From the NCBI GenBank assembly GCA_965243655.1, contig CBDEVV010000017.1, forward strand, positions 2,275,902 through 2,339,901: a stretch of DNA of 64,000 bases, written 5' to 3'. The notes under the pieces were generated by a model, which worked only from the letters and a program-made list of their open reading frames with translations, was not told the origin of the DNA and did no database searches. This document shows, one piece after another, positions 11,001 to 33,426 of this stretch. Within the stretch, counting starts at the first letter, position 1, and each line of letters starts with the position of its first letter. Made by a program: the position numbers and the translations under genes. The DNA comes from Dehalococcoidia bacterium (GTDB lineage Bacteria; Chloroflexota; Dehalococcoidia; Lucifugimonadales; CAJWER01).

Positions 11001-11060
11001 GCGACTGCCGGATTCAGCCTTCCGGCCCCTTGGTGGTCGAACCCCTGCAGGCCTCAGCCG

Positions 11061-11089
11061 TTGACTCGGGTTCGCGTAGTCTCTATCCT
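11061..11089 (+). promoter_or_regulatory. Candidate promoter for the ATP-grasp operon (TTGACT, 17-nt spacer, TATCCT)
   Basis: Hexamers read directly from the sequence, about 100 nt upstream of the GTG start at 11194. Confidence 0.3.
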
Positions 11090-11193
11090 AGCTGCCGCCC
11101 GCGGGAGTGTGAGATTGGCGCGCCATTGGCTCCGCGAGGGCTCCCGTGGGCGTTGAGGTACGGCGCCGTTTGATGAAGAGGTAAGTTGCCGCA

Positions 11194-13654: not shown

Positions 13655-13698
13655 CGCCCCTGTCGGAACACCCTGGGATTCGGCGCTCTCAGGCGGGT

Positions 13699-14631
13699 CT
13701 AGGGTCCGGACTTAACGACGTAGGCACTGTCAAGCAGCTCCAGGGCGTCTTCAAGGCCGTGTCCGGTCTCTGCAAACTCAGAGGTGGATATGACGGCGTG
13801 CTCTCGGGTCGTCCCACCGGATATGAAGCTGCCGGCGACCGGAGATACATCCGAGTAGTCCAGGCCCACCGCGAACCTCACATAGTCGCGGGCAGGGGGC
13901 AGGACCACTCCACGGGTCGGATCCGCGCCCAGCCAACCATCTTCAGGATGAAGAAACTCAAGCCATGAGTGGGTCTCCCCCCTCTGTCCCGTGATCAGCC
14001 CGCTCACATAGCGGCATGGCACGCCCATCGAGCGGAGAATCCCAAGAGCGAGGTGCGTCTTGTCCTGGCACACGCCCTCCATCGTGGACGCGACCTGCTC
14101 GGCCGTAGTTTCGACGCTGGTCCGGCCCCTGATATAACGGACCTCCTCGTAGACCCAGTTGGTCACGCGGCTCACGATGTCGAGCAGCCCGCGTGACCCA
14201 CCGGCGATGTCCCGGGCGAGCCCTGCGACGTTTCCGGGCTCTATCAGCTCAGTGGGCGCTGTGAGCTCGGTATTGCCAGGCGGCTCCACCGCCTTGGCCA
14301 GGACAACCTCGTTGAACACCGGTAACTCGGGCGATAGTGAGACGAGACCGGCAGTCGCGACTACCAAGCTCGTGTGATGCTCAGTGACCCGATAGCTCTG
14401 GACTAAGTTGCCGAAACGGTCGCGAAAAGTGTCTCCTACACCAAGTGGAAGGACCCAGACCTCCGACGCCAGGGCCGTCTGTCCCAGCTCGATCCTGGGT
14501 AAAAGGCGGAGCTGGTTGTCGTTCTGGAATACGACATCTGAGTACTGGTAGCGAGCCACGTACACGTAAGAGACAGGCACGGACTCCGCCGAGTGTCGTT
14601 CCTCAGTCGCCGGGCAGCCTAGCGGTCTCAC
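13699..14631 (-). CDS. Transglutaminase-like protein (Bact_transglu_N plus transglutaminase core, COG1305)
   Basis: Core catalytic context GVCQDKTHLALGILRSMGVPCRYVSG...HSWLEF...DPT (Cys-His-Asp). The start codon is uncertain (GTG at 14631). Confidence 0.85.
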   Translation of the reverse strand: MRPLGCPATEERHSAESVPVSYVYVARYQYSDVVFQNDNQLRLLPRIELGQTALASEVWVLPLGVGDTFRDRFGNLVQSYRVTEHHTSLVVATAGLVSLSPELPVFNEVVLAKAVEPPGNTELTAPTELIEPGNVAGLARDIAGGSRGLLDIVSRVTNWVYEEVRYIRGRTSVETTAEQVASTMEGVCQDKTHLALGILRSMGVPCRYVSGLITGQRGETHSWLEFLHPEDGWLGADPTRGVVLPPARDYVRFAVGLDYSDVSPVAGSFISGGTTREHAVISTSEFAETGHGLEDALELLDSAYVVKSGP

Positions 14632-14651
14632 GTGCGCGCCACCGAGGTCCC

Positions 14652-15077
14652 TCAGAGGGGATTTCGCCAGAGGAGTCCCGGGAAGCGGCTGAAGTCAGTG
14701 TCGTTCGAGTGGACCTCGGCTTGGTATTCCATCGCGATGGCGGCGATGTGGGCGTCTGCGACCAGATTGCCTCCGACGCCGGCGGCGACGAGATTCCTCC
14801 TCAGATGGGCCATGTGGTCTGGGCCGGGGTCGAGTGGCGTGACATGTGGGTATAGGAACCACTCATGCACGTAGTCCACAGCTTCCGGTGGGGACGCAGG
14901 CCGAGCAAGGACGTGGGGGCTGGTTATGAGCCTCAGAAAACCTGTCGATACTATCCACGGAATCCCGACCCGGTTGGTGCCGTTGATCAAGTCTTCCCAC
15001 CAGCGACTAGAGGGTCCGTGATGGGGCGCCCCTCTATCGTAGGCGTACAGGAGCAGATTGACGTCAGGGACGATCAC
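14652..15077 (-). CDS. vapC: PIN-domain toxin VapC
   Basis: 141 aa. MIVPDVNLLLYA places an acidic residue at position 5, with DAHIAA and SNDTDF further on. Its GTG start overlaps the antitoxin stop (GTGA). Confidence 0.85.
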   Translation of the reverse strand: MIVPDVNLLLYAYDRGAPHHGPSSRWWEDLINGTNRVGIPWIVSTGFLRLITSPHVLARPASPPEAVDYVHEWFLYPHVTPLDPGPDHMAHLRRNLVAAGVGGNLVADAHIAAIAMEYQAEVHSNDTDFSRFPGLLWRNPL

Positions 15078-16555: not shown

Positions 16556-18247
16556 ATGAAGTCCCGCATCGCCTGCACGGCGGTCCTATGGATGTTCGTC
16601 GTAGCCTGCGCTGGAGAAGGCGTACCCCCCACGACTTCGGCTCCGCCCCCAACCGCGGAGGTGATGGAAACGCCGGGGCGTGCTCTCTTTGTGGACGTCA
16701 CCGAGGCTGCCGGTGTCGCTTTCCGTCACCATGAGGACCTGACGGAGATGCAGCCGGTCGGCGGCGGCGTCCTGGCGTTCGACTACAACGGAGACGGGCT
16801 GCATGACGCGTACCTAACCGACTCGCTGGGACCGAATGCACTCTTTCGGAACAACGGCGATGGCACCTTCACCGACGTAGCCGAGTTGGCCGGGGTGGCC
16901 GACCCGGAGGGCCACTCGAACGGTGGATGTGCCGCCGACTATGATAACGACGGCGACCAGGACCTCTACGTGACCAACCACGGCCCCAGCAGGCTGTTCA
17001 GGAACGAAGGCGACGGGACGTTCTCGGACGCCTCGGAGTCGGCAGGAGTGGTCGATCCGGACCCTTCGCTCAAGTCGACCGGCTGCGCCTGGGGGGACTA
17101 CGATCGGGACGGTTTCCTGGACCTCGTGGTGGTGCGCCACTTCCGCGAGCTGACGTCCCAGACGCTGGTGGAGGGCACGTTTCACGAAGAGGTACGCAGT
17201 CTCGTCCTACTCCACAATGCGGGCGATGGATCGTTCACCGATGTCACCGACTTGCTAGGGCACACGCTCCCGCCTTCCCGCAGCAGGTACGGTGAGCCGC
17301 TGGGGAATATCTGGGGGGCAGGGTTTCAGCCCGGCTGGCTGGACTACGACGGCGACGGCGACGCGGACTTGTACGTAGCCAACGACTGGGGGACGTTCAC
17401 GAATCCGAACGTCCTGTGGCGGAACGACGGCCAGGCAGACGATGGGAGCTGGCTATTCGTAGATGTTTCCGAGGAGTCGGGTGCCGACGTAGCTATAGAG
17501 GCGATGAGCGTCACCGTGGGCGACTACAATCTGGACGGACGGCTCGACGTGTTCGTGACAAACGTGGGCGCGAGCGTACTGCTTAGGGGTGATGGTGCGA
17601 GGTTCGCGAACGTCTCCGCGGAGGCCGGGACTGAGATCGCGATGATCGGTGTAGAGAAGCGAGTGACCTGGGGTTCAGCCTTCCTCGACTACGACAACGA
17701 CGGGCTCGAGGATCTTTACATAGTCAGCGGCTTCCTGAAGCCGACCATCAACCCCCAGGATGCGCCTTCCTACATGAAGCGGCAGCACAACAAGCTGCTG
17801 CGCAACAGGGGAGACGCGACTTTCGAGGATGTCTCCGCCAACAGCGGCGCCGACGATGACGGTGTAGGGCGAGGGCTCGCCTACCTGGATATCGACGAGG
17901 ACGGGTGCCTCGACCTGCTCGTCGGCAACCTTGGCGGCCACGCCAGGCTCTTGAGGAACAGGTGCCACAGTGGGAACAATTGGCTCATGGTGAGTCTGGT
18001 TGGCACCCACAGCAACAGGGATGGAATCGGGGCAAGGATCACCCTGGAAGTGGACGGACGGACCCAGATACGGGAAGTATCGGGGGGAGGCAGCTTCATG
18101 AGCCAGCACATGAGGACCGCACACTTCGGCCTAGGCCCAGCCTCGAAAGTCGACCGTTTGACCGTCAGGTGGCCCAGCGGTATAGTTCAGGCGTTGGTAG
18201 ATGTGCCGGTTCGCAGGCACATCACGGTCACCGAGACGTCCGACTAG
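16556..18247 (+). CDS. CRTAC1-family lipoprotein (FG-GAP/VCBS repeats plus a C-terminal ASPIC/UnbV domain)
   Basis: Lipobox in MKSRIACTAVLWMFVVAC. Repeated D.D.DG..D calcium-binding FG-GAP motifs (DYNGDGLHD, DYDNDGDQD, DYDRDGFLD, DYDGDGDAD, DYDNDGLED, DIDEDGCLD). ASPIC/UnbV-like tail NRDGIGARI...GGGSFMSQ. Confidence 0.85.
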   Translation: MKSRIACTAVLWMFVVACAGEGVPPTTSAPPPTAEVMETPGRALFVDVTEAAGVAFRHHEDLTEMQPVGGGVLAFDYNGDGLHDAYLTDSLGPNALFRNNGDGTFTDVAELAGVADPEGHSNGGCAADYDNDGDQDLYVTNHGPSRLFRNEGDGTFSDASESAGVVDPDPSLKSTGCAWGDYDRDGFLDLVVVRHFRELTSQTLVEGTFHEEVRSLVLLHNAGDGSFTDVTDLLGHTLPPSRSRYGEPLGNIWGAGFQPGWLDYDGDGDADLYVANDWGTFTNPNVLWRNDGQADDGSWLFVDVSEESGADVAIEAMSVTVGDYNLDGRLDVFVTNVGASVLLRGDGARFANVSAEAGTEIAMIGVEKRVTWGSAFLDYDNDGLEDLYIVSGFLKPTINPQDAPSYMKRQHNKLLRNRGDATFEDVSANSGADDDGVGRGLAYLDIDEDGCLDLLVGNLGGHARLLRNRCHSGNNWLMVSLVGTHSNRDGIGARITLEVDGRTQIREVSGGGSFMSQHMRTAHFGLGPASKVDRLTVRWPSGIVQALVDVPVRRHITVTETSD

Positions 18248-19369: not shown

Positions 19370-20731
19370 CTACGCCCCCGCGAAACCGAAGGAGTAGAGC
19401 CTGGTCGACGTGAGGTAAAACTTGAGCCGTAGGGTCTGTCCCTTGAGGTGATCGAATGAGACGTGATTCTCCCACGTGATCCGCTGGCGCACTGAGTCGC
19501 TGTCGAAGGGGGCGCAGTCGATGTGGCGCATCCCGTCGACCTGCATACCGTCTGCGCCAAGCACCGCGACCTCCAGTACGCCTCCCCGGGCGTACGCGTT
19601 GACTTCGAGCTCGCCGCCCTGGCATACGAACGGCTGAGTGATCATCCAGCCTGTCTCCGAGCCGGCGTCCAGCGAGACGAACCCGTCGAGGCGCAGCTTG
19701 CTCAGGAATCCACGCCCATTCCTGTGCCTGCTGCCGTGGTCGCCGTCGGACCCGGAGCCGTAGAACCAGAGCTCGTCGCCGACCCGCACCGGCTCCTTGG
19801 CGCAGGCGACCATGCCCTGGTCGAGGCTGCCGCGCGGCCCAATTGGGATGAATGGCTGGCGGTCACCCGCTCGCGACCACTGGACGCCGTCATGGCTGAC
19901 CGCGAGCTGGACGTCCATCGTACCGCCCATCCTGCCGTGGGGCTCCTCGGGGTAGGTGTAGTACCCCCACGGCAGCCCGAGGTACAGGCCCTCGTATTTG
20001 AACACCGGCATGTTGTAGAACTCCAGGTCAGGCTCGTCATGGTCGGGTTGCAGGACGATCTCCGGCTCGCTCCAGCTGGTGAAATCGTCGCTGACCGAGC
20101 GTCCTACCAGCCGCCTGTTGATGCCCTTGTCGGCGTCGCGCCCCGGCCTGACGTACGCCACGTACTTGCCAACGTTGTCGTCCCAGCCGAGTAGCGAGTG
20201 GGTGTCGCCGGTACCTGTCAGGACCGGGTTGCCATCGAACTCTGTCCAGCGAATGCCGTCAGACGAGAAGGCCACGGATACCGACGCGGGCCTCTTCGGC
20301 TGTGGTCTCGGTATTGAGAAGTCCCAGTACAGCATCTTGTAGCGCCGCTCCGGGTCTGGGTCCCTGGGGTCGTGGATCACGTTGGGGACGCACGCCTCCT
20401 CCATGATCCGGTTGTTTGCCGAGCTCCCGGCTACCTCTATCAACCCCAGGTCAGGCTTGTGCCAGAAGATGCCGTCCATCGAGGTTGCGTAGCAGGCCGG
20501 GTAGCGGTCTTCGTACCAGCCCTGGTACCAGGCGCGGAATGAGCCGTCGTCGTCGCGCAAGACGGTGCCCACGAATCCGGCGTCCCTCTCCCATGGCAAT
20601 GACGGCCTGAGTATCGGGTTGCCGGCGTATTTGACCGGCTGATTCAAGGTCTTGGCGATGCAGCACGTCTCGGAGATAGCGCTGTCGTCGATGAAGAGCT
20701 GCCTGTTCTGGTATGGGTCGATGTGAGTCAT
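19370..20731 (-). CDS. Beta-propeller, glycoside-hydrolase-like protein (GH32/43/130-clan-like), paralog 1. Function uncertain.
   Basis: N-terminal NRQLFIDDSAISE...PVKYAGNPILRPSLPWE...FRAWYQG...ATSMDGIFWHKPDLG, and collinear with 21331-22845. I trimmed the start to the ATG at 20731 (MTHIDPY). The coding call is solid; the family assignment is from memory only. Confidence 0.5.
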   Translation of the reverse strand: MTHIDPYQNRQLFIDDSAISETCCIAKTLNQPVKYAGNPILRPSLPWERDAGFVGTVLRDDDGSFRAWYQGWYEDRYPACYATSMDGIFWHKPDLGLIEVAGSSANNRIMEEACVPNVIHDPRDPDPERRYKMLYWDFSIPRPQPKRPASVSVAFSSDGIRWTEFDGNPVLTGTGDTHSLLGWDDNVGKYVAYVRPGRDADKGINRRLVGRSVSDDFTSWSEPEIVLQPDHDEPDLEFYNMPVFKYEGLYLGLPWGYYTYPEEPHGRMGGTMDVQLAVSHDGVQWSRAGDRQPFIPIGPRGSLDQGMVACAKEPVRVGDELWFYGSGSDGDHGSRHRNGRGFLSKLRLDGFVSLDAGSETGWMITQPFVCQGGELEVNAYARGGVLEVAVLGADGMQVDGMRHIDCAPFDSDSVRQRITWENHVSFDHLKGQTLRLKFYLTSTRLYSFGFAGA

Positions 20732-20732
20732 G

Positions 20733-21011
20733 CTAGGCGTAGCCTTTCTTATCGGGGTCCTCGCGGAGTACCTGCCCATAGACCTGTTGCCCTTGGTCAA
20801 TGGCTGGACGCATCCTGGCGAAGTCCTCGGCCGTCAACTCTGGGTTATCCGGGTCCCTGGCGGCTCCCACACGGATGGCTGTGTCCTCGCCGTACTTCTC
20901 CTCTACCTCGTCGAACGTTAGATCACTTGCTGCGATCTCGCTGATTTGGCTATGCGTGAGGTCAACCGTCGCCGGGGCCGGACTGACATGGTCCTGCTTA
21001 AGCCTGGGCAT
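20733..21011 (-). CDS. BrnA/DUF4415-like antitoxin remnant (92 aa)
   Basis: The motif DPDNPELTAEDFARMRPA is typical of BrnA-family antitoxins. The ATG at 21011 is preceded by AGGAGA. It lacks the usual C-terminal ribbon-helix-helix segment. It lies directly downstream of a BrnT-like reading frame. Confidence 0.5.
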   Translation of the reverse strand: MPRLKQDHVSPAPATVDLTHSQISEIAASDLTFDEVEEKYGEDTAIRVGAARDPDNPELTAEDFARMRPAIDQGQQVYGQVLREDPDKKGYA

Positions 21012-21330: not shown

Positions 21331-22845
21331 ATGGCAAAAGGGAATCTGCCGTTGGATGTCGGGAATCGGAAGCAGCTGTTTATAGACGAGCGGTTTATCG
21401 AGCGGAGTGAGGACGTCGAGCTGACGATGAACCCGGCGTATATGAGCGAGGAGCCGGTCCTGGTCCAGGACAGGCCTTGGGAGGAGCGCATAGGCGGGTA
21501 CAACACGGTTATCAGGGAGGGGGACCGGTTTCGCATGTGGTATGACTTCACTCCGCCGGACGGCGATCCCTCCGGCATTACTCGCGGGGTTGCCTATGCG
21601 GAGTCGACCGATGGCATTCACTGGGAGAAGCCCGAGATCGGGCACGTCGAAATCTGCGGGAGCCTGGCGAACAACGTGGTGATACCGAGGCTTCCGGACG
21701 CTCCACGGGGCGAGACCGAGGGCGGCACAGTGATGCTGGACACGAACCCGGACTGCCCTGAAGAGGAGCGGTACAAGTTCTGGACGAAGGTGCGCGACAT
21801 CCCGCCGGAAGACCAGGCACGGGGCATGAAGGAACCTTTCTGGCAGATGTATTCGAGCGACGGCATCTACTGGAACGCCTACCCCGACCAGATCGATGTG
21901 CCGCAGTGCGACACGCAGAATGTGCCGTTCTGGGACGACCGGCTTGGCAAGTACGTGGGCTACGGGCGAACACGCAGACCGTACATGGGCTTTCGCGTGC
22001 GGGGCATAGGAAGGATCGAGTCCACGGACTTCCACGACTGGTCGGAAATGGAGGAGGTGTACCGTGCCGAGGCTTCCGAGTGGCGGTTCAGCCCGCCGGC
22101 GGAGTGCGCCGAGCGACTGGGCGGGTACGTGGACGTCTACACGAACGCGGCCTGCAAGTACCCGGAGGCCGAAGACGTATACCTGATGCTGCCCAGCTTC
22201 CTCTACCACTGGGAGTGCGTCGAGGTCGTCCAGGCAGAGGGTGACGAGGCGGGCGACATGCACGTCAACTTCCCCGACACCTCGGACGTTCGGCTGCTCA
22301 CCAGCCGCGATGGGGTGTCCTGGGCGCAGGCCCCCGGCCGGCGGCCGTTCCTGCGGGTGGGCCTGAAGGGCGGGGCCAGGTCGCGCCAGCTATACACGGC
22401 CCCCGGTTTCGTGAGGGTGGGGGACGCGCTCTGGAACTACTGCTCGGGCTCGAACCGGAACCACTCGCACCAGTTCGACGAGGAATCCGAGGAGATCAAG
22501 TACGGCATCTACGTGAACGAGTCGCGGCTGGACGGCTTCATCTCGGCCGACACGCCATACGAGGGCGGGTGGCTGGTTACGCCGCCAATAGTGTTCGAGG
22601 GGACTAGGCTGGAGCTCAACGTGGACACCAGCGCGGGGGGCACGGCGTCCGTCGAGATCCAGACGCCTGAGGGTTCGCCGATCGATGGTTTCTCGCGTGA
22701 GGACTGCGACACGATCAACGGCAACTCTACGAGGATGCCGGTGACGTACCGCGGCGACGCCGACGTGAGCGGGCTGGCGGGCAGGCCCGTACGGCTTCGG
22801 ATCGAGACTTACGACGCGAAGCTGTACGCCTTCCAGTTCAAGTAG
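21331..22845 (+). CDS. Beta-propeller, glycoside-hydrolase-like protein, paralog 2. Function uncertain.
   Basis: 504 aa with NRKQLFIDERFIE...RPWEE...FRMWYD...AESTDGIHWEKPEIG, collinear with paralog 1. RBS GGAGGTGA lies 8 nt before the ATG. Confidence 0.5.
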   Translation: MAKGNLPLDVGNRKQLFIDERFIERSEDVELTMNPAYMSEEPVLVQDRPWEERIGGYNTVIREGDRFRMWYDFTPPDGDPSGITRGVAYAESTDGIHWEKPEIGHVEICGSLANNVVIPRLPDAPRGETEGGTVMLDTNPDCPEEERYKFWTKVRDIPPEDQARGMKEPFWQMYSSDGIYWNAYPDQIDVPQCDTQNVPFWDDRLGKYVGYGRTRRPYMGFRVRGIGRIESTDFHDWSEMEEVYRAEASEWRFSPPAECAERLGGYVDVYTNAACKYPEAEDVYLMLPSFLYHWECVEVVQAEGDEAGDMHVNFPDTSDVRLLTSRDGVSWAQAPGRRPFLRVGLKGGARSRQLYTAPGFVRVGDALWNYCSGSNRNHSHQFDEESEEIKYGIYVNESRLDGFISADTPYEGGWLVTPPIVFEGTRLELNVDTSAGGTASVEIQTPEGSPIDGFSREDCDTINGNSTRMPVTYRGDADVSGLAGRPVRLRIETYDAKLYAFQFK

Positions 22846-22958: not shown

Positions 22959-24065
22959 TCAACCGCCTGGGATGTAGAGGCTGCGGTCCTCGACCGGCAG
23001 GGTTACTCGCGCGCCGCCCTGCAGGTGGGAGTGAGCGATGCCGAACTGGGTTTCGACTGCCTGCATCGTGACGTCGATGTTGCCGGTGGTGCGTTCGCCG
23101 GTCTCGAGCTCGTTGATGATGTTGCGTATGGTCGCGACGGTCGGGCTGTCGCCGGTGGGGATGATCTCCGTCTCCTCGACGGACGAGGCCCCCTTGCCCG
23201 CACGTCTTATCTTGAAGAACGAGCCGTTCTCCCAGGAGTAGGCCTTGCCCTCCGTGCCGTACACCTCGATGTCCAGGCTGCCGATGGGCAGGTAAGTGGC
23301 CTCGACGCCTCCGTCGTATCCAACGCGGAAGTGGCCGACCATGGGATCCGCGATCTCCTCGCCCGGCGGCGGCACGAAGCTGTGGCTGGCCTCGTCGTAG
23401 TCCGGGTATGACCGCGGGCGGGCGGCGGACTGGCCGCTCTCAAGCAGGTCGCCCTTCTGGACCAGAGTGCCCTCGACCCACAGCGGCGCCGGGTCTCCGA
23501 TCTGCATTTGGACTAGGTCGATCGTGTGCGGGTGGTGCTTGATGATGTCGGTATACGTCGGCATGACGACGAACCGGGGTTCGCCGATAGCGCCGTCCGC
23601 GATGGCCGCGGCCATGCGCACGAACCCGTCGTGGTGGCGCCGCATAGAGCCCCAGTTGAAGGCGACGCCGTTGGACTTGACGGCGTCGCGGATGTTATCT
23701 GCCTCCTCTAGCGAGGCGCAGAGGCCCTTCTCGGCGTAGATGCCCTTCACGCCGTTCTCTGCGGCGAAGATGATCGGTGCGGCGCGGTGGACCGAGGCCG
23801 TGGTCACGCTGACGATGTCGGGCTGCTCCCTCTCGATCATCTCGCGGTAGTCGAGGTAGGTGTTGCTTACCCCGAAGCGCTTGCTGAACCGCTGGAGCCG
23901 CTCCTCGCCCCTGTTGGCGACGGCCACCACCTCGGTCTCGTCGATGGATGCGTAGGAGCTGAAGTGACCGTATGGGCTGGAGTATGCGTTGCTGGGGATC
24001 TCGTCTTCGATCAGGCCGCCCATTCGACCTGTCCCGATGATCGCTACCTTGTAATTGGCTGCCAT
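22959..24065 (-). CDS. Gfo/Idh/MocA-family NAD(P)-dependent oxidoreductase
   Basis: N-terminal Rossmann KVAIIGTGRMGG and the family layout with an AEKG (EKP-like) motif. Confidence 0.85.
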   Translation of the reverse strand: MAANYKVAIIGTGRMGGLIEDEIPSNAYSSPYGHFSSYASIDETEVVAVANRGEERLQRFSKRFGVSNTYLDYREMIEREQPDIVSVTTASVHRAAPIIFAAENGVKGIYAEKGLCASLEEADNIRDAVKSNGVAFNWGSMRRHHDGFVRMAAAIADGAIGEPRFVVMPTYTDIIKHHPHTIDLVQMQIGDPAPLWVEGTLVQKGDLLESGQSAARPRSYPDYDEASHSFVPPPGEEIADPMVGHFRVGYDGGVEATYLPIGSLDIEVYGTEGKAYSWENGSFFKIRRAGKGASSVEETEIIPTGDSPTVATIRNIINELETGERTTGNIDVTMQAVETQFGIAHSHLQGGARVTLPVEDRSLYIPGG

Positions 24066-24271
24066 GTGCTAGGCTCCTCATGAGCTGGATTGGGCAGCAC
24101 TCTAGCAGACGGTCAGGCCGCCGCGCAAACGGGACGATCCCACAGATGTACCATGCGACCACGTAGCATCTTGTAGCTGTAGAGGCCTTGTGATAACGTG
24201 CTCAACGAGCAAGCGCAACTAGTTGAGTGGATGGCTCCGACAAAGCCTGAAACTCCCTGGTTTCCGGGTAC

Positions 24272-24300
24272 TGAACAGCTGCGGGTCAGCCCTCTATAGT
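24272..24300 (+). promoter_or_regulatory. Candidate promoter for the giant Asp-box gene (TGAACA, 17-nt spacer, TATAGT)
   Basis: Hexamers read directly, 48 nt upstream of the ATG at 24348. Confidence 0.3.
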
Positions 24301-27300
24301 GAGCCTGTGGTCCACTAGCCGTCGAAGTCCTCCAGGATCGAGCCCGAATGAGACTGCAGAGAGCCATACGGTTCACAGCGCTCCTATTGGCAGGAGCGTC
24401 GGTTGCCCTAGTCGGCTTCATAGTGCTCCTAATGCTACTCCCCCAGGCTGCCCAAGTCCTCTTTGATCGCCAACAGCAGCGAATCCGCGATCATCAGACC
24501 GAGCAGGGACAATTCGAGGCCCAGCCGGTCAACCTCTATGGCTGGTCCACACAGTCCAGCATAGCCACCATTCTCGACGTCGAGTTCGTCGACGAGCGGA
24601 CTGGCTGGGCGGTAGGCACCGGCGGAGAAATACTGTCGACTTCGGACGGGGGCGCTGAGTGGACGACGCAGGAGAGCGGAACGACCCTGTCCCTCCACTC
24701 GGTCAGCTTCATCGACAGTAGAACCGGGTGGATCGCCGGAGACCGGGGACTCGTGCTTGGTACGACCGACGGCGGCACGGTATGGACGCCGCTCACCACC
24801 GGCACCTCCGTGCCGCTGCGCGGTGTCGATTTCGTGGATGCTTCAACAGGGTGGGTGGTCGACTCTATCGGGCGAGTCCTGTCCACGTCGAACGGCGGGG
24901 CAACCTGGACGGACACACAGGTCGCTTCCGCCTCGTTCGAGGGCCTGGACTTCATCGACAGGCTCCGAGGCTGGGCTGTGGGAAGCTCCGGTACCGTGGC
25001 CAGGACGACGGATGGCGGAGCAAGCTGGGATGTGGAGACGTTCGGGCGAGAGCTGCTGTTCGACACCAGCTTCACCGACGCGGAAACCGGTTGGGCGGTA
25101 GGAAGTGGGGGGACCATCCTGGGCACGGTGGACGGCGGGGGAACGTGGGTCCGTCAGTACGCAAGCACCGACACCTACATGCTGGACGTGGACTTCGTAG
25201 ACGGCTCGACAGGCTGGGCGGTTGGACGTGACGGCGCTGTCCTGGGCACCACCGATGGCGGGCGGACTTGGGCGGCCCAGTCGAGCGGCGTTGACGTCGC
25301 CCTCCTGTCCGTTGACGCCATTTCTGCTAAGAACGCAGTAGCTGTAGGCATCGCTGGCTTAATCATGGCTACGCATGACGGCGGCTCGACATGGCAGGTC
25401 GTGAGGGTGCCAGAGGCGCTGTTAGACCTGGACTTTACAGACTTCTCCAACGGCTGGGCCGTGGGCACGCTCGGGCTGGTTCTTCGCACCCAGGATGGGG
25501 GAAGAACGTACGAAGAGCTTCCCGCCTCAACTGACAGGCGCCTGCACGGCGTTGAGTTCCTCGACTCCGCTAACGGTTGGGTCGTGGGCGAGGCCGGGAC
25601 TATCATGCGCACGGTGGACGGGGGACAGAGCTGGCTGCCACAGGCTAGCGGCGTCGCGGAGACACTGAGGGGAGTCCAGTTCATCGACTCGAGCTCGGGC
25701 TGGGCTGTGGGCGACTCGGGCATCGTACTGGCGACCTCCGACGGAGGGGTCGTCTGGCGGGCCGTAAGGGTAGGGAACGACACCCTCTTCGACGTCGAGT
25801 TCCTGGACGCCACCACAGGGTGGGCAGTGGGCGAGAACGGTGCACTATTCACGACGACCGACGGCGGAGTCACCTGGATGGCGGCGCCGAGCGGGATTCA
25901 GCAACACCTCTACGACCTCGACGCCTTAGATCAAGACAAGATATGGGCGGTCGGAGCGAACGGCACGGTGCTGCACTCGCCCAACGGCGGGCAGGCGTGG
26001 GCCGAGCAGAGAAGTGGCACGGGGGAGGACCTGCTCAGCGTGGGCTTCGCAAGCGCCAAGAGAGGCTGGGCGGTCGGCAGACGTGGGACGATCATCAGGA
26101 CTGAGGGTGGCGGAGGGTCATGGAGCCTCGAGGAGGTTGGGACCCGTCACGACCTCCACAAGGTCCACGTTGTGGACGGGACCACCGCCTTCGCAGTGGG
26201 GGACCTGGGCCTGCTCCTGGGGTACACCGGAAGCCCCGATGTCTTCCTCGGCGTGAACCCCTGGGTGATCGGGCTGGTCCTTCTTACTGCATTAGCGTCT
26301 GTATATCTCTGGAGGCGCTACGTTGCCGGGCCCTTCGAGAGAGGGCTGAGGCAGCAACCGCGAACGGCTGACCGACCGCTGCAGACCGCGACGAGGGGGC
26401 CAGACAGGCAGCCGTCTTTCGCACTCGCGGCTGGCGAAGACAACCAACCTCGAACCAACGGGGGATGGGGCGGTTGGTCTTATGCTGCCGTCGACGCGCT
26501 CAGGGGTCGCGCCCGAACGGGGCTACGGCCAGCCATACGATTCGTAGCGCTTCTACTGGTAGGCGCCTTGGCTACGCTGGTGGGCTTCATAGTACTCCTT
26601 ATGATGGCCCCCCCGCTGTTCCAATGGCGGTACGACCAGGTCCTCCAGAAACAGCAACACTTTCGTGAAACTCAGCAGGCCTACTACTCGGCCCAGCCAC
26701 ACAACCTTTATGGCTGGACCACACAGTCGAGCCTGGTCACCATTCTCGATGTCGAGTTCATCGACGAGCGGACCGGCTGGGCGGTAGGCTCCGGCGGCAA
26801 GATCCTATCGACTTCGGACGGGGGCGCTACCTGGTCTCCGCAGGAGAGTGGAACGACACTGTCGCTCCACTCGGTCAGCTTCATCGACGGCATGACAGGG
26901 TGGATCGCTGGTGACGGGGGACTCGCGCTCGGCACGACCGATGGCGGCGCGGGGTGGAAGCCCCTCGACACGAGCACCGGCGCTCCGTTGCGCGGTGTCG
27001 ATTTCATTGATGAGAATACGGGATGGATGGTCGACTCGATGGGGCGGGTGCTGTCCACGTCGAACGGCGGGGCTACCTGGATTGCCACCCAAGCCGCTTC
27101 CGCCTCGCTAGAGAGCCTGGACTTCATAGACGGGCTCCGTGGCTGGGCCGTAGGAGGCGCCGGCACGATAGCCAGCACCACAGACGGGGGCGCCAACTGG
27201 ACTGCCGAGTCGCTCGGGCGTGAACTGCTATTCGACGCCAGCTTCGCCGACGCGGACACAGGCTGGGCGGTAGGAAGCGGGGGGACCATCCTGAGCACCG

Positions 27301-28635
27301 CCGACGGCGGGAGAACGTGGGTGCGGCAGCAGACAAGCACCGACACCTACATCCTCGGCGTAGACTTCGTCGACGGCTCGACGGGCTGGGCCGTAGGACG
27401 CGACGGCGCTGTCCTGGCCACCACCGACGGAGGGCGGACCTGGACAGCCCAGTCCAGCGACGTGAGCACTACCTTCGCGGCCGTCGACGCAATCACCACC
27501 AAGAGCGCGGTCGCGGTCGGCATTTCCGGTCTCATCATAGCGACGCGCGACGGAGGCGCCACGTGGCAGGTCATGAGAGGGGTCGAGTCCCTCCTCGATC
27601 TGGACTTCATAGATTCCTCCAACGGCTGGGCAGTGGGCACGTTCGGCCTAGTGCTCCACACGCAGGACGGCGGTAAGACATACGAGGAGCTTCCCGCTCC
27701 AACCGACAGGCACCTGCACGGGGTCAAGTTCATCGACGCGGCTGAAGGCTGGGGCGTAGGGGAGAACGGCACGATATTGCGCACCGTGGACGGAGGGAAG
27801 ACCTGGCTGTCACAGGCCAGCGGCGTGGCGGAGACGCTGAGGGGAATCGAGTTCGTAGACTCGAGCACCGGCTGGGCGGTGGGCGACTCAGGCATTGTCC
27901 TGGCGACCACGGACGGAGGCACCACCTGGAGCACCCGGAGGGCGGGGGACGACGCCCTCTTCGGCATCGAGTTCCTGGACGCAAACACAGGGTGGGCAGT
28001 GGGCGAGAACGGGGCGCTCTTCACCACGACCAACGGTGGAGACACCTGGACGGCGTCGTCAAGCGGCACTCCCCGGCATCTGTACGACCTCGATGTCATA
28101 GATCAAGACAGGGTGTGGGCGGTCGGAGCGAACGGCACAGTACTGCACACGTCCAACGGCGGGCAGGTATGGGCGGAGCAGAGAAGCGGCACCAGCGAGG
28201 ACTTGCTCAGCGTGGGATTTGCGAATGCCAAGAGAGGCTGGGCGGTCGGCAGGCGAGGGACGATCATCAGGACAGAGAAGGGCGGAGAGTCATGGAGCCT
28301 CGAGGCGGTCGGAACCCGTCACGACCTCCACAAGGTCCACGTTGTGGACGGGACCACCGCCTTCGCAGTAGGGAACCTGGGCCTGCTCCTGGGATACACC
28401 GGGCGCCCCGATGTCTTCCTGGGTGTGAACCCCTGGGCGATTGTGCTAATCCTTCTCATTACCTTCGCGTCCATCTATCTGTGGAGGCGCCACGTTGCCA
28501 GACCCTTCCAGCGAAGGACTGGTGTAGCTGCAGCGGGCAACTGGCGCACCGGCTGGGCAACGGCGGCCGGCGACAACAGAGGAACAGGGTAGGCGACCCC
28601 CTCCCCGCGGTTAACGCTCAGCACTCGTGGGGGAT
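24298..28635 (+). repeat. Direct tandem duplication, unit about 2.17 kb (about 24298-26466 and 26467-28635)
   Basis: Anchor strings recur at an offset of 2169-2172 nt (GCCATACGG at 24363 vs GCCATACGA at 26532; GTGAACCCCTGGG at 26253 vs 28425). By eye the two units are about 80 percent identical at the nucleotide level. Confidence 0.85.
24348..28592 (+). CDS. 1414-aa membrane protein made of two tandem copies of TM / 13-14 BNR(Asp-box), Ycf48-like propeller blades / TM
   Basis: 26 Asp-box motifs (S/T-x-D/N-G-G-x-x-W, e.g. STSDGGAEWT, GTTDGGTVWT) spaced about 43 aa apart, each preceded by GWAVG-type strands. Four hydrophobic helices: RFTALLLAGASVALVGFIVLLMLL, VNPWVIGLVLLTALASVYLW, RFVALLLVGALATLVGFIVLLMM and VNPWAIVLILLITFASIYLW. 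Confidence 0.8.
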   Translation: MRLQRAIRFTALLLAGASVALVGFIVLLMLLPQAAQVLFDRQQQRIRDHQTEQGQFEAQPVNLYGWSTQSSIATILDVEFVDERTGWAVGTGGEILSTSDGGAEWTTQESGTTLSLHSVSFIDSRTGWIAGDRGLVLGTTDGGTVWTPLTTGTSVPLRGVDFVDASTGWVVDSIGRVLSTSNGGATWTDTQVASASFEGLDFIDRLRGWAVGSSGTVARTTDGGASWDVETFGRELLFDTSFTDAETGWAVGSGGTILGTVDGGGTWVRQYASTDTYMLDVDFVDGSTGWAVGRDGAVLGTTDGGRTWAAQSSGVDVALLSVDAISAKNAVAVGIAGLIMATHDGGSTWQVVRVPEALLDLDFTDFSNGWAVGTLGLVLRTQDGGRTYEELPASTDRRLHGVEFLDSANGWVVGEAGTIMRTVDGGQSWLPQASGVAETLRGVQFIDSSSGWAVGDSGIVLATSDGGVVWRAVRVGNDTLFDVEFLDATTGWAVGENGALFTTTDGGVTWMAAPSGIQQHLYDLDALDQDKIWAVGANGTVLHSPNGGQAWAEQRSGTGEDLLSVGFASAKRGWAVGRRGTIIRTEGGGGSWSLEEVGTRHDLHKVHVVDGTTAFAVGDLGLLLGYTGSPDVFLGVNPWVIGLVLLTALASVYLWRRYVAGPFERGLRQQPRTADRPLQTATRGPDRQPSFALAAGEDNQPRTNGGWGGWSYAAVDALRGRARTGLRPAIRFVALLLVGALATLVGFIVLLMMAPPLFQWRYDQVLQKQQHFRETQQAYYSAQPHNLYGWTTQSSLVTILDVEFIDERTGWAVGSGGKILSTSDGGATWSPQESGTTLSLHSVSFIDGMTGWIAGDGGLALGTTDGGAGWKPLDTSTGAPLRGVDFIDENTGWMVDSMGRVLSTSNGGATWIATQAASASLESLDFIDGLRGWAVGGAGTIASTTDGGANWTAESLGRELLFDASFADADTGWAVGSGGTILSTADGGRTWVRQQTSTDTYILGVDFVDGSTGWAVGRDGAVLATTDGGRTWTAQSSDVSTTFAAVDAITTKSAVAVGISGLIIATRDGGATWQVMRGVESLLDLDFIDSSNGWAVGTFGLVLHTQDGGKTYEELPAPTDRHLHGVKFIDAAEGWGVGENGTILRTVDGGKTWLSQASGVAETLRGIEFVDSSTGWAVGDSGIVLATTDGGTTWSTRRAGDDALFGIEFLDANTGWAVGENGALFTTTNGGDTWTASSSGTPRHLYDLDVIDQDRVWAVGANGTVLHTSNGGQVWAEQRSGTSEDLLSVGFANAKRGWAVGRRGTIIRTEKGGESWSLEAVGTRHDLHKVHVVDGTTAFAVGNLGLLLGYTGRPDVFLGVNPWAIVLILLITFASIYLWRRHVARPFQRRTGVAAAGNWRTGWATAAGDNRGTG

Positions 28636-28690
28636 GCCGGTCCCCCAGTTCTCCATCAAGTCCTGGACAGTTGGGGCGCGTGTCGGGAGA

Positions 28691-28719
28691 TTTCACGTAT
28701 GCAGGCATGATGGTATGAT
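28691..28719 (+). promoter_or_regulatory. Promoter for the second VapBC pair (TTTCAC, 17-nt spacer, TGgTATGAT)
   Basis: Extended -10 read directly. It is followed by RBS AGGAGA and the ATG at 28746. Confidence 0.4.
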
Positions 28720-28745
28720 GTAATGCGTACAGGAGACGGCATGCA

Positions 28746-28994
28746 ATGAGGCGGACCCAGATACAACTGGACGAGGCTACTTACCACCTGGCCCGGCAGA
28801 GGGCATTCGATGAGGGCGTGTCCTTGGCGTCAGTTATCAGGGAGGCGGTCAGCCAGTATCTTGCTCCTGGGCCCGCCGGCGCCCCAACGATAGAGGACCT
28901 GGGATTCGTGGGGATAGGAAGATCGGACCAGGCCGGGTTGAGTCCCGTGTCGGAGCGTCATGACGAAGCCTTGCAAGAGGCGTCCACGCATTGA
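28746..28994 (+). CDS. vapB: Ribbon-helix-helix (CopG/VapB-type) antitoxin
   Basis: 82 aa. MRRTQIQLDEATYHLARQRAFDEGVSLASVIREAV shows an RHH-like pattern. Its stop overlaps the start of the PIN gene (TTGA). Confidence 0.75.
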   Translation: MRRTQIQLDEATYHLARQRAFDEGVSLASVIREAVSQYLAPGPAGAPTIEDLGFVGIGRSDQAGLSPVSERHDEALQEASTH

Positions 28995-29377
28995 TCTTCC
29001 TGGACACCTCGGCAGCCTATGCTATTGCCGATGCCGCCGACCCCAACCATCGAAACGCCTCCTCTCGGCTTCAGGCCACTCTGGAACGGCGCGAGTCGGT
29101 GCTGACCCACAATTACGTCGTACTGGAGAGCGCTGCCCTCATACAGAGCAGGCTTGGACTGCGAGCCGCATTGACGTTCCTTAAGGGCGTGCGGCTCATT
29201 CATGTACACTGGGTGACGCAGGATGAGCACTGGAGTGCGCTGGAGATGCTCGACCGGCGAAACAGACGGGACTTGAGCCTGGTTGACTGCGTCAGCTTTG
29301 TTGTGATGCGGAAGCACGGTCTCACCACGGCGCTGGCTTATGATGCGGACTTCGAGCGCGAGGGGTTCACAACCTAA
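28991..29377 (+). CDS. vapC: PIN-domain toxin VapC
   Basis: 128 aa. (M)IFLDTSA places the acidic residue at position 5, with LVDCVSF and YDADF acidic residues further on. Confidence 0.85.
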   Translation: MIFLDTSAAYAIADAADPNHRNASSRLQATLERRESVLTHNYVVLESAALIQSRLGLRAALTFLKGVRLIHVHWVTQDEHWSALEMLDRRNRRDLSLVDCVSFVVMRKHGLTTALAYDADFEREGFTT

Positions 29378-30936: not shown

Positions 30937-33426
30937 ATGACGAAGGACGGTTCGGTAGAGGCGACGCTTGTTGAGTTCTTGAGGGCGCGCGCAGAGCAAT
31001 TTGGCGACCGGGATGCGCTGCTCTTCAGGCCCGGGTTCCGGTACCAGCGCTGGTCATACGCCGACATTTGGGAAGGCGCGGGGCGCATCGCGGCGCTGCT
31101 TCAGTCGCGCGGCCTGTCGAAAGGGGACCGCGCCCTGATCTGGGGGCCTAACTGCCCGCAGTGGGTGTTGGCGATGTTTGGCTGCCTGCGTGCCGGCGTA
31201 GTCGTCGTACCGATCGATCTGCGGAGTCCCCGCGAGTTCGTCGAGAACGTGACGTCCCGGGTGGACGCAAAGCTCTCGTTCGTATCCCGCGTGACACCCA
31301 GCTATCACGGCGAGCTAAGGGTCCCTGAGATCGACTTCGAGGAGCTGGAGGCGCTGTCTGAGGAGATGTCCGAGCCATCCCCCGTGGACATAGGGCCCGA
31401 CGACCTTGCCGAGGTGATGTTCACGTCGGGGACGACGGGAGACCCGAAGGGCGTCATGCTCACGCACCGGAACATCAACGCGAACATAGAGTCGGTCGTC
31501 CAGGTCGCCCCGGGCAAGGCGTCCGACCGCATGATGTCGATCCTGCCGCTGAGTCACATGCTGGAGCAGATGGGCGGTCTGCTGGTGCCGATGAACGCAG
31601 GGGCAAACGTTGCGTACCCGACGGCGCGTCAGGCCACCGTGCTATTTCGGACCATGAAGGAGCGCCGCGTCACGATGATGGTCCTGGTCCCGCAGCTCCT
31701 GGACCTATTCATGAAGGGGATCGAGCGGGAGGTCCGAAGGCAAGGCAAGGAGGCCCTTTGGGCCAAGCTGATGAAGGTCGCGGCGCTCATGCCATTCCCG
31801 GTGCGCCGGGTCATGTTTAGCCAGGTGCACAAGAAGCTAGGGGGCAAACTCTCCTTCATATTCGCCGGGGGCGCACCCCTGGATCCCGACCTGGGGGCCA
31901 AGTGGAACCTGCTCGGCGTCGACGTGGTCCAAGGCTACGGCGCGACCGAGACTTCGCCCGTCATCACGTGCCACTACCAGTCCAGGCCGCGCTACGATTC
32001 GCCGGGGCCGCCGGTGCCCGGCGTCGAGGTGAAGATCGCCAGCGACGGCGAGGTGCTCGTGCGCGGCGAGAACGTGACGCAGGGGTACTGGAACGCGCCC
32101 GAGGCCACCGCGTCCTCATTCGAGGACGGCTGGTACAAGACGGGCGACCAGGGTGAGTTCGACGAGGAAGGCTACCTGCACCTGAAAGGGCGAAAGAAGG
32201 ACATGATAGTCCTCAGCAGCGGCCTGAACGTCTACCCGGAGGACATCGAGGCGATGCTGGTCAAGCACGAGGCGGTGGAAGATGCCGCTGTCGTAGGACT
32301 TCCGCGCCAGTCCGGCCCGGAGGTGCATGCCGCGCTGCTCGTACCGGACGCCGGTCGAGCCTCCGATGCGGTTGCCTGGGCCAACGGCATGCTGGCGGAA
32401 CACCAGCGGGTGCGCGGATTCACCGTCTGGCCGGACGAGGACTTCCCGCGCACCCACACCCTGAAGGTCAAGAAGGCAATGCTCACCGACATGCTGCTCA
32501 GCGAGGGCGAAGGGGAGTCCGACTCCCCGGCGCGCCAGCCCACGGCCCAGGAGGGGCCGTCGCTGGCGGGGATCATCGCCGAGGTCGCCGAGGTTCCGGT
32601 TGCCCAGGTTGCCGGCGAGAAGACGCTCGACGGCGACCTCGACATGGACTCACTGAAGCGGGTGGAGCTGCTGTCGGCTATCGAAGAGGAGCTTGGCGTT
32701 TACCTGGAAGAGTCTGCGATGGAGCAGGGCACCACGGTCGCCGCCCTGGCAAAGATGGTGGACGAGGGCTCCCGGACGCCCGAGGAGAGGAAGTTCGTAC
32801 GGTGGGGGATGAGCTGGTGGTGCAGGCCGCTTCGAGGCGCGCTACAGCGCGTCGTGATATTCCCGGTGCTCAGGCTGCTGTACGGTTTCAGGGTGGTGGG
32901 AGCTTCGAGGATAGAGGACCTGGAAGGACCCGTGCTGTTTGCGGCGAACCACTGCCTGCGGCTCGACAACGGCCTGCTCATCAAGGCCATGCCGCTGCGC
33001 CATCGCAGGCGGCTTGCCATCGCCGCATGGGAGGAGTTGTGGGAGAACCCCGCATATCGCATTACCCACCCGCTCATCGGCAACGGCTTCCCGTTCTCGA
33101 AGGAGGGAGCGGTGCGCGCGAGCCTGGAGAACATGGGCCGCATACTCGACGACGGGTGGTCGGTGCTCATCTATCCCGAGGGCGAGCTGACGGTCGGCGG
33201 CCCCATGCAGCCCTTCAGAGGGGGCACGGGCCTGGTGGCCCTTGAGTCGGGCATACCCGTCGTGCCCGTCAAGCTGGAGGTCCTGAAGATCGGCTCGCCC
33301 ACGGGCTTCCCGTTGTTCAGCAGGGGGAGCGTGGAGGTGCGCTTCGGCTCTCCCATCACCTTCGAGCGCGGCACGACCTACGAAGAGGCTACTGCAGTGC
33401 TCGAAGGGGCAGTCAGGGCGCTGTAG
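30937..33426 (+). CDS. Tri-domain fusion of an AMP-dependent acyl ligase, a phosphopantetheine carrier domain and a PlsC/LPLAT-type acyltransferase
   Basis: Adenylation motifs MFTSGTTGDPKGV, GYGATETS and YKTGDQGEFDEEGYLHLKGRKKD. Carrier motif LDMDSLKRVELLSAIEE. Acyltransferase motifs ANHCLRLD (HX4D), IYPEGELT and PVVPV. Confidence 0.85.
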   Translation: MTKDGSVEATLVEFLRARAEQFGDRDALLFRPGFRYQRWSYADIWEGAGRIAALLQSRGLSKGDRALIWGPNCPQWVLAMFGCLRAGVVVVPIDLRSPREFVENVTSRVDAKLSFVSRVTPSYHGELRVPEIDFEELEALSEEMSEPSPVDIGPDDLAEVMFTSGTTGDPKGVMLTHRNINANIESVVQVAPGKASDRMMSILPLSHMLEQMGGLLVPMNAGANVAYPTARQATVLFRTMKERRVTMMVLVPQLLDLFMKGIEREVRRQGKEALWAKLMKVAALMPFPVRRVMFSQVHKKLGGKLSFIFAGGAPLDPDLGAKWNLLGVDVVQGYGATETSPVITCHYQSRPRYDSPGPPVPGVEVKIASDGEVLVRGENVTQGYWNAPEATASSFEDGWYKTGDQGEFDEEGYLHLKGRKKDMIVLSSGLNVYPEDIEAMLVKHEAVEDAAVVGLPRQSGPEVHAALLVPDAGRASDAVAWANGMLAEHQRVRGFTVWPDEDFPRTHTLKVKKAMLTDMLLSEGEGESDSPARQPTAQEGPSLAGIIAEVAEVPVAQVAGEKTLDGDLDMDSLKRVELLSAIEEELGVYLEESAMEQGTTVAALAKMVDEGSRTPEERKFVRWGMSWWCRPLRGALQRVVIFPVLRLLYGFRVVGASRIEDLEGPVLFAANHCLRLDNGLLIKAMPLRHRRRLAIAAWEELWENPAYRITHPLIGNGFPFSKEGAVRASLENMGRILDDGWSVLIYPEGELTVGGPMQPFRGGTGLVALESGIPVVPVKLEVLKIGSPTGFPLFSRGSVEVRFGSPITFERGTTYEEATAVLEGAVRAL

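Follow-up and report, generated by a model that had tools for sequence, protein, structure and literature searches.

The window analysed here is a 64,000-nucleotide (nt) stretch of contig CBDEVV010000017.1 from an uncultured Dehalococcoidia bacterium. It carries at positions 24348–28592 of the forward strand a single reading frame of 1414 amino acids (aa) plus stop codon, which is made of two similar units placed head to tail. Each unit displays an N-terminal transmembrane (TM) helix, 14 Ycf48-type blades that form two 7-bladed propellers, a second TM helix and a basic tail. The open reading frame (ORF) appears to be an in-frame fusion of two tandem paralogous genes. The features of the locus are as follows; AF2 denotes the AlphaFold2 model and L001 a related contig with two separate genes, A and B, both described below.

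24272–24300 (+), putative promoter-like site (TGAACA, 17-nt spacer, TATAGT) upstream of unit 1, from a consensus scan only
24310–24347 (+), conserved 5′ leader of ~35–40 nt, common to four copies (window units 1 and 2, L001 genes A and B)
24348–28592 (+), fused ORF, 1414 aa plus stop (ORF list, BLASTN, hydropathy)
24372–24440 (+), TM1, predicted signal-anchor, aa 9–31, after the basic MRLQRAIR (hydropathy, charge counts; AF2 helix 2–52)
24543–25406 (+), unit 1 propeller 1, 7-bladed, aa ~66–353 (AF2 strands, Asp-boxes, Pfam PSII_BNR)
25407–26237 (+), unit 1 propeller 2, 7-bladed, aa ~354–630 (AF2; end-to-end alignment with Ycf48, E = 2.6e-24)
26256–26309 (+), TM2, aa 637–654, followed by WRRY (hydropathy, charge; AF2 helix 638–668)
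26310–26540 (+), predicted cytoplasmic linker, aa 655–731 (four-way DNA alignments A3 and A4, three-frame translation)
26541–26612 (+), TM3, aa 732–755, the former signal-anchor of unit 2 (hydropathy, charge)
26715–28406 (+), unit 2, two 7-bladed propellers, aa ~790–1353 (Pfam, Asp-boxes; 74% identical to unit 1)
28425–28481 (+), TM4, aa 1360–1378 (hydropathy, charge)
28482–28592 (+), basic, predicted cytoplasmic tail of the ancestral type (WRRHVARPFQRRTGVAAAGNWRTGWATAAGDNRGTG) and TAG stop, kept in both L001 genes

Self-comparison of the region gives one sharp optimum, at an offset of 2172 nt. A BLASTN comparison of the two halves shows 81.3% identity over 1838 nt (E = 0), and the protein halves are identical at 511 of 687 aligned residues. 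Between the two start positions the distance is 2169 nt (ATG at 24348–24350, ACG at 26517–26519). Hydropathy analysis displays four strong hydrophobic segments, at aa 6–40, 631–654, 726–760 and 1354–1380. A regular expression for the Asp-box (T-x-D-G-G-x-x-W, with a spacing of ~41 residues) finds 25 in the 1414-aa protein, and the count becomes 13 per unit once TEKGGESW, the 13th of unit 2, is added by eye. A first-pass annotation, made from the nucleotide letters and a list of open reading frames, had described a head-to-tail unit at an offset of 2169–2172 nt with 13–14 Asp-box blades per unit; both statements hold, with 13 Asp-boxes by motif and 14 blades in the AF2 model, and the duplication greatly exceeds what chance would give.

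Three antisense open reading frames of 212–250 aa (25175–25873, 26708–27346 and 27347–28099, all −) run through the fused gene. They are not considered genes, but a side effect of the repetitive, GC-rich codon pattern.

When one genome per species was scanned, a sole close relative emerged, L001, which is the 1.5-Mb contig CBDHCU010000008.1 of a Dehalococcoidia metagenome-assembled genome (MAG). The unfused two-gene state, which the annotation had suggested looking for in related genomes, is present here. Gene A (L001 positions 10031–12103) encodes 690 aa and has its own start and stop. Gene B (~12932–14914) encodes 676 aa from its first possible start; in place of the ancestral ATG it has GTG. 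Genes A and B are ~0.8 kb apart, and a C-terminal remnant of a Mutator-family (IS256-like) transposase lies between them (12148–12633, −; model positions 229–378 of 379). Window unit 2, gene A and gene B have in common the tail RRP.VAT.GTWRSGWATAA.D..G.G followed by TAG. Thus the stop is ancestral and the read-through in the window is derived.

The changes at the junction were read from four-way DNA alignments of the two window units with genes A and B of L001. Straight after the PFER codons, at 26345/26346, a 1-nt deletion shifts the frame, and a 12-nt deletion in the copy-1 tail is found at 26362/26363. At 26405–26407 there is a CAG opposite the TAG of the other copies, and because of the 1-nt deletion this triplet is no longer in frame either. 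Some 30 nt that used to be 3′ flank, after the old stop position, are translated in the linker. Homology to the 5′ leaders of genes A and B begins at ~26441, and ~75 nt of leader are likewise translated. A 25-nt deletion at 26484/26485 corresponds exactly to the segment with in-frame stops and a −10-like hexamer that is found upstream of the other three copies; the −10-like part of the promoter-like site of unit 1 is within this segment (alignment A4). At 26517–26519 ACG is present where the other copies have ATG or GTG, and by direct reading of the sequence unit 2 has no canonical in-frame start until a TTG or GTG inside TM3. In the ancestral frame there is a TGA at 26369–26371, and the conserved tail of copy 1 is lost in either frame (by the 12-nt deletion, and by a TGG to TGA change in the ancestral frame).

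The former tail, 3′ flank and 5′ leader are together translated as a linker of ~59 aa, and the predicted cytoplasmic loop is ~77 aa overall. The fused frame encodes the junction peptides QPSFALAAGEDNQPR and TNGGWGGWSYAAVDALR. The first-pass annotation had proposed that both gene boundaries at the junction were erased, that the ATG of copy 2 had become ACG, and that the former 3′ tail and 5′ untranslated region were now read as a linker of about 60 aa; the alignments and the translation agree with it on all of these points. It had also aligned the stop of copy 2 with GCGGCTGGCGAAGACAACC (~26427–26445). This placement was ~30 nt off, as the four-way alignment puts the TAG at CAG 26405–26407, but it remains correct that no stop is left in copy 1. 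The junction can be considered a clean, dated example of a cytoplasmic loop that arose from a stop codon, the intergenic spacer behind it and the next start codon.

A segment of ~35–100 nt before the start is conserved in the four copies at about the level of identity of coding sequence (window 24272–24347 and 26441–26516; L001 ~9930–10030 and ~12830–12931). An Rfam search of positions 23800–29000 gave no match at E ≤ 1; thus the conserved leader is not a known riboswitch. A scan for terminators gave no match, either between the two units or downstream of them.

Purifying selection acts on both halves. The ratio of nonsynonymous to synonymous distances (dN/dS) is 0.18–0.23 in all pairs of the four copies, and the conserved blade and TM residues are all retained in both halves. 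The synonymous distance (dS) is 0.35 for unit 2 versus A, 0.47 for unit 1 versus A, 0.56 for unit 1 versus unit 2, and 0.51–0.71 for comparisons with B. Unit 2 and gene A show a dN/dS of ~0.22 over 690 codons without disruption; their nt identity is 91% in mid-gene and only 60% at the 5′ end. These mosaic identities and the synonymous distances show that the four copies do not form simple orthologue pairs, and gene conversion, recombination or transfer among them is indicated.

No relative with >50% identity is among the matches listed from an exhaustive search of 1.84 billion cluster representatives, nor among those listed from a word search of 5.8 billion sequences. The subfamily is patchy: genomes with a closely related SecA are in the database (84–88% identity, in at least 17 protein clusters). 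A look-up of the exact 1414-aa protein in public assemblies did not find it. A scan of viral contigs yielded no relatives, and thus there is no sign of a phage origin.

On the evidence of the DNA the fusion is quite probably real. Several independent changes are all directed towards fusion: the 1-nt, 12-nt and 25-nt deletions, TAG to CAG, and ATG to ACG. An artefact of assembly or base calling is an unlikely alternative; the 1-nt deletion abuts a GGG run. With one more G at 26343–26346, copy 1 would end at TGA 26369–26371 (PFERG.AEAATANG*), 8 codons on in the ancestral frame, and the locus would consist of two separate paralogous genes. A linker of ~60 stop-free codons has a chance probability of P = 0.18, or ~6% when the matching phase (1 in 3) is included. 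Under this alternative, however, copy 2 would have no start (ACG), no −10-like leader segment and no canonical start before the middle of TM3, and it nonetheless displays an intact frame under purifying selection; the tail of copy 1 would be lost even in the ancestral frame. Other frame disruptions were seen neither over the ~4.1 kb of the two units as compared with L001 nor in SecA, which homologues cover at 100%. An assembly indel that falls exactly within the 34-nt critical stretch would be a coincidence.

It may also be proposed that the sequence is free of error and the locus is in decay: the fused frame would be an accident before one copy disappears, and the second half would not be produced or would have no function. 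The patchy, accessory nature of the family, the insertion sequence (IS) remnant in the L001 locus and a linker without coding-type skew in GC content at third codon positions (GC3) would fit with this. The GC3 of the linker is 0.68, as compared with 0.78–0.81 in the propeller cores, and its GC content is flat over the codon positions. Both halves, however, are of full length without stops or frameshifts, and their dN/dS values and the retention of blade and TM residues make decay distinctly unlikely.

The fold was analyzed with an AF2 model of the first half, built from both halves of the fused protein together with twelve homologues from the database, which had been trimmed. The mean pLDDT (predicted local distance difference test) score is 80, and most propeller blocks have values of 85–97. 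The model displays an N-terminal helix (positions 2–52), 14 four-stranded blades arranged as two 7-bladed propellers, and a C-terminal helix (638–668). Structure prediction of one half thus bears out the earlier proposal that the repeats are propeller blades. The Pfam model PSII_BNR (PF14870), a family to which the annotation had likened them, matches in 18 stretches with 455 bits against a cut-off of 27 (E = 1.5e-136). Seven-bladed Asp-box propellers, as expected of the PSII_BNR superfamily, are present, with blades of ~41 aa.

A Foldseek search of the PDB with the whole unit places xyloglucanases of glycoside hydrolase family 74 (GH74) first (6p2m, 7kn8, 2cn3, 5jwz; template modelling scores 0.53–0.58, E ~1e-20). 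A GH74-like hydrolase, which would use the inter-propeller cleft of each unit, the site of the catalytic Asp pair in GH74 enzymes, to hold and cleave a polysaccharide, is supported by this match. However, the structural alignments have an identity of 11–16% and a root-mean-square deviation of 6–7 Å, and phmmer against the PDB finds no GH74 chains at E ≤ 0.001; only Ycf48/HCF136 chains match (E ~1e-24). In addition, the blades are minimal, which leaves little loop material for a cleft, and no carbohydrate-use genes adjoin the fused gene. Such an activity is most improbable.

Ycf48 is the best single-propeller match in Foldseek (template modelling score 0.73–0.77 on the target, 22–23% identity), and the alignment of propeller 2 of unit 1 with Thermosynechococcus Ycf48 (2xbg/5ojp) extends over the full length. 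Ycf48 is lumenal, with a lipoprotein or twin-arginine translocation (Tat) signal; its tether holds it at the extracytoplasmic face of the membrane, and it makes contacts between proteins (PMC8038367). Single-propeller relatives in Proteobacteria show cofitness with exporters of the resistance-nodulation-division (RND)/MMPL type (bioRxiv 10.1101/072470; PMC13101534). By analogy, the propellers might act as an assembly chaperone which binds extracytoplasmic loops of nascent membrane proteins and helps to assemble a membrane complex, the part that Ycf48 plays for the D1 protein of photosystem II; Ycf48 proper has a conserved Arg patch that binds chlorophyll-protein/D1. This role is very unlikely, as neither a partner complex nor an exporter is encoded near the window or L001 locus, and homologous modules are mostly found within adhesin-like or surface-anchored multidomain proteins.

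The fused protein is no photosystem II factor. The Ycf48/HCF136 model NF010237 does reach 507 bits (cut-off 326), but only via 17 partial stretches, the best of which covers positions 48–166 of 334. The N-terminus, MRLQRAIRFTALLLAGASVALVGFIVLLMLL, has no Cys and no twin-Arg with short h-region, and displays a 23-residue hydrophobic anchor instead of a Ycf48 targeting signal. An oxygenic phototroph as host is also rejected: the sole close relative is a Dehalococcoidia MAG, and the one named SecA relative among the matches listed is a “Chloroflexi bacterium”. No photosystem families are among the Pfam matches of ten neighbouring open reading frames. Annotation pipelines will nevertheless call the fused protein “photosystem II assembly factor Ycf48” via the repeat-inflated equivalog score, a label that is wrong for a Dehalococcoidia-type organism.

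Two other assignments were tried and rejected. Sortilin/Vps10 (PF15902), a ten-bladed propeller with 10CC modules after it, scores 66.5 bits overall, but no single stretch passes, and the unit has 7 + 7 blades and no Cys-rich module in the model. A sensor of the hybrid two-component system (HTCS) or KAP-NTPase type does not fit, as only a 36-aa tail or the 77-aa linker follows the second TM helix and there is no Pfam domain in either. LPXTG, PEP-CTERM and PGF-CTERM motifs are absent before TM2 and TM4 (...GYTGSPDVFLGVNPW...). The conserved 36-aa tail after the C-terminal helix is unlike the short basic cluster of sorting signals, and no other open reading frame of the window has the same C-terminal ending.

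The 14-blade module itself is abundant. It is found in 68,745 cluster representatives at E ≤ 0.001, in proteins of up to 6,596 aa. The 120 best database matches were screened for TM segments and architecture. In 108 of them the alignment covers at least 520 of 585 residues, and the matches listed have ~38–46% identity. Continuous four-propeller proteins without internal TM helices are present (e.g. P0036, P0039, P0090), as are proteobacterial proteins with the order TM, 13–14 blades, TM, KAP NTPase (e.g. P0084, P0041, P0100, P0115). Anchors and domains in the relatives include type IX secretion system (T9SS) sorting signals, lipoboxes, S-layer homology (SLH) and cell-wall-binding domains, dockerin or cohesin, FN3, CARDB and multihaem cytochromes. 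The surface anchors, which suit the respective lineages, and the adhesin-like domains place the 14-blade module outside the cytoplasm. The YCF48-related double propeller, which spans tens of thousands of sequence clusters, is among the commonest extracytoplasmic modules of environmental bacteria.

The first-pass annotation had considered a membrane-anchored array of 14 + 14 Ycf48-like blades to be an undescribed architecture. This is partly true. Membrane-flanked and longer arrays exist, as the above counts and the KAP NTPase forms show, but no chain with two TM-bracketed modules was found among the 120 screened matches. The novelty is limited to the four-TM doublet of a very common surface module.

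Many of the relatives (P0015, P0017, P0024, P0026, P0034 and others) have the 14-blade module fused to a multihaem cytochrome and FN3. Source names among those of the cytochrome type are Clostridiales (P0017) and Coriobacteriia (P0054). The module may thus have a place in surface electron-transfer proteins.

The following origin is proposed. The ancestral unit would have been a protein of ~690 aa with an N-in signal-anchor and an extracytoplasmic two-propeller module, then a C-terminal TM helix with a basic tail of 36 aa in the cytoplasm. Small deletions in the copy-1 tail may have moved the frame past the old stop, and the 25-nt deletion would have taken out the stop-bearing, −10-like leader segment of copy 2, where the ATG changed to ACG. 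As its start and leader are lost, copy 2 would have a full signal-anchor only as part of the 1414-aa polypeptide.

The distribution of charges suggests how such a chain would be inserted. The N-terminus has 3 Lys and Arg residues, the linker 14 and the tail 7, as compared with 0–3 in the segments that flank the propellers. From its basic N-terminus, TM1 is predicted to insert N-in; translocation of the first 14-blade domain would follow, and TM2, with WRRY next to it, would stop the transfer. The Arg-rich linker (14 Lys + Arg versus 6 Asp + Glu) would remain cytoplasmic. TM3 would re-initiate translocation for the second domain, and TM4 with the basic tail would end the chain inside. The product would have four membrane crossings (in-out-in-out-in) and display two 14-blade ectodomains, double propellers that are related but not identical, side by side on a probably monoderm cell of the Dehalococcoidia type. 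The topology given in the annotation (in, TM1, out, TM2, linker, TM3, out, TM4) is therefore self-consistent, as the charges fit the positive-inside rule.

By the Rosetta-stone argument, that fused proteins tend to interact elsewhere, the two paralogous units would work as a pair, and in the relative proteins A and B, which are encoded separately, probably form a pair as well. The fusion of adjacent paralogues thus provides a testable prediction, namely that the units pair while tethered to the membrane at both ends. If the fusion is accepted, the chances are about even that the role is a non-enzymatic one, i.e. surface-displayed binding or a scaffold. Taken as a whole, a genuine in-frame fusion of two tandem paralogues with a surface binding or scaffold role is held with moderate confidence to be the best explanation of the locus.

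Several points weigh against this explanation. The 1-nt deletion adjoins a classic site of homopolymer error, and the fusion is read from the assembly alone. The linker lies in a GC-rich region (63–65% GC), where open frames are cheap, and its lack of a coding GC3 skew indicates that it is young or unconstrained. The mosaic relationships, in which the window units are not simple orthologues of A and B, weaken the Rosetta-stone argument. A single relative with the same unit was found, and its flanks are not syntenic with those of the window. Variation between the paralogues is spread over all loops and strand D and favours no propeller face; the gene neighbourhoods in the window and in L001 are uninformative for function; and the proposed function is drawn from the fold and from the domains that occur with the module.

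A different role can be considered for the two-TM double propeller, that of a repeating envelope or S-layer-type block in a possibly wall-less Dehalococcoidia lineage. The fusion would then fix a heterodimer of paralogous units as a covalent two-unit block, and the separate A and B proteins would pair on the cell surface. In a variant of this, TM3 still acts as an internal signal sequence and the chain is cut into two proteins after insertion. The putative S-layer protein DET1407 (UniProt Q3Z6N3) of Dehalococcoides mccartyi is an abundant BNR/Asp-box beta-propeller protein (PMC6646388, PMC5102406, bioRxiv 10.1101/2024.05.28.596244), and a beta-propeller has been reported to make up its lattice domain (bioRxiv 10.1101/2024.05.28.596244). 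The class Dehalococcoidia is monoderm, with no peptidoglycan in several lineages (PMC10284905); TM anchoring is also known for S-layer proteins. On the other hand, the published tryptic peptides of DET1407, the peptides alone being compared, are unlike Ycf48-type blades, and an essential envelope protein is not expected to be absent from close relatives. An S-layer function is thus quite unlikely, and the fusion of paralogues with a more general binding or scaffold role is preferred.

The neighbouring genes encode GFO/IDH/MocA oxidoreductases, a toxin-antitoxin pair, NIPSNAP, a metallo-beta-lactamase-fold protein and an acyl-AMP ligase-acyltransferase, and give no functional clue. GFO/IDH/MocA genes are found near both the window and L001 loci in differing arrangements, which is treated as a coincidence. 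Directly 3′ of the fused gene is an open reading frame resembling a ribbon-helix-helix (RHH) antitoxin (28746–28994, +), with a weak RHH_1 match of 19.9 bits against a gathering threshold of 20.5. It overlaps by 4 nt with an open reading frame resembling a PIN-domain toxin (28991–29377, +). The two look like a VapBC-type pair, which fits a flexible genome region. Just upstream of the fused gene, the open reading frames at 21331–22845 (+, 504 aa) and 19370–20800 (−, 476 aa) have no Pfam match at E ≤ 0.001. An 829-aa open reading frame (30937–33426, +) combines an AMP-binding enzyme, a phosphopantetheine carrier and an acyltransferase in one chain. At 16556–18247 (+) there is an FG-GAP repeat protein with a C-terminal ASPIC/UnbV domain, adjoining an ABC-type permease; it is another protein of propeller type, probably extracytoplasmic, and unrelated to the fused gene. 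Two 892-aa open reading frames (2984–5662 and 6609–9287) were considered as an inverted duplicate because of their equal length and proved unrelated on comparison.

The fused protein can be compared with several known systems. The closest are the PSII_BNR multi-propeller surface proteins. These have the same ~570-aa 14-blade module with 38–46% end-to-end identity and an Asp-box in nearly every blade; they are extracytoplasmic, and the module is often tandemly multiplied. They differ in their anchors (T9SS, lipobox, SLH, cell-wall-binding or dockerin) or in the presence of KAP NTPase or other cytoplasmic domains. Periplasmic HTCS sensors of Bacteroides (e.g. BT4663, a weak Foldseek match at rank 47) have a double beta-propeller between N- and C-terminal TM helices, and the proteobacterial TM-propeller-TM-KAP NTPase proteins look similar to them. 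The HTCS sensors, however, have a cytoplasmic signalling output, and their repeat family is Reg_prop, not PSII_BNR.

GH74 enzymes and the related oligoxyloglucan reducing-end-specific cellobiohydrolase (OXG-RCBH) share tandem 7 + 7 Asp-box propellers in one chain of ~700 aa and are the best structural match to the whole unit. They have no detectable sequence similarity to the window protein, whose blades are ~25% shorter, and they are secreted and soluble, or carry a carbohydrate-binding module (CBM) or dockerin. Ycf48/HCF136 shares the seven-bladed Asp-box propeller and the membrane-tethered position on the extracytoplasmic (lumenal) side. It is, however, a single propeller of ~330 aa from oxygenic phototrophs, whereas the window protein has four propellers and TM anchors and no photosystem II genes nearby. 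DET1407 (demc_1296), set beside the window protein by description and peptides only, comes from the same bacterial class and is an Asp-box beta-propeller protein of the cell surface; it is a core, highly expressed protein, whereas the window family is patchy.

The fusion of SecD and SecF as SecDF, and the internally duplicated RND transporters, are cases in which adjacent paralogues with large outside domains have become one multi-pass chain with the topology unchanged. These are polytopic transporters of known function, whereas the window units have two TM helices each and no known activity.

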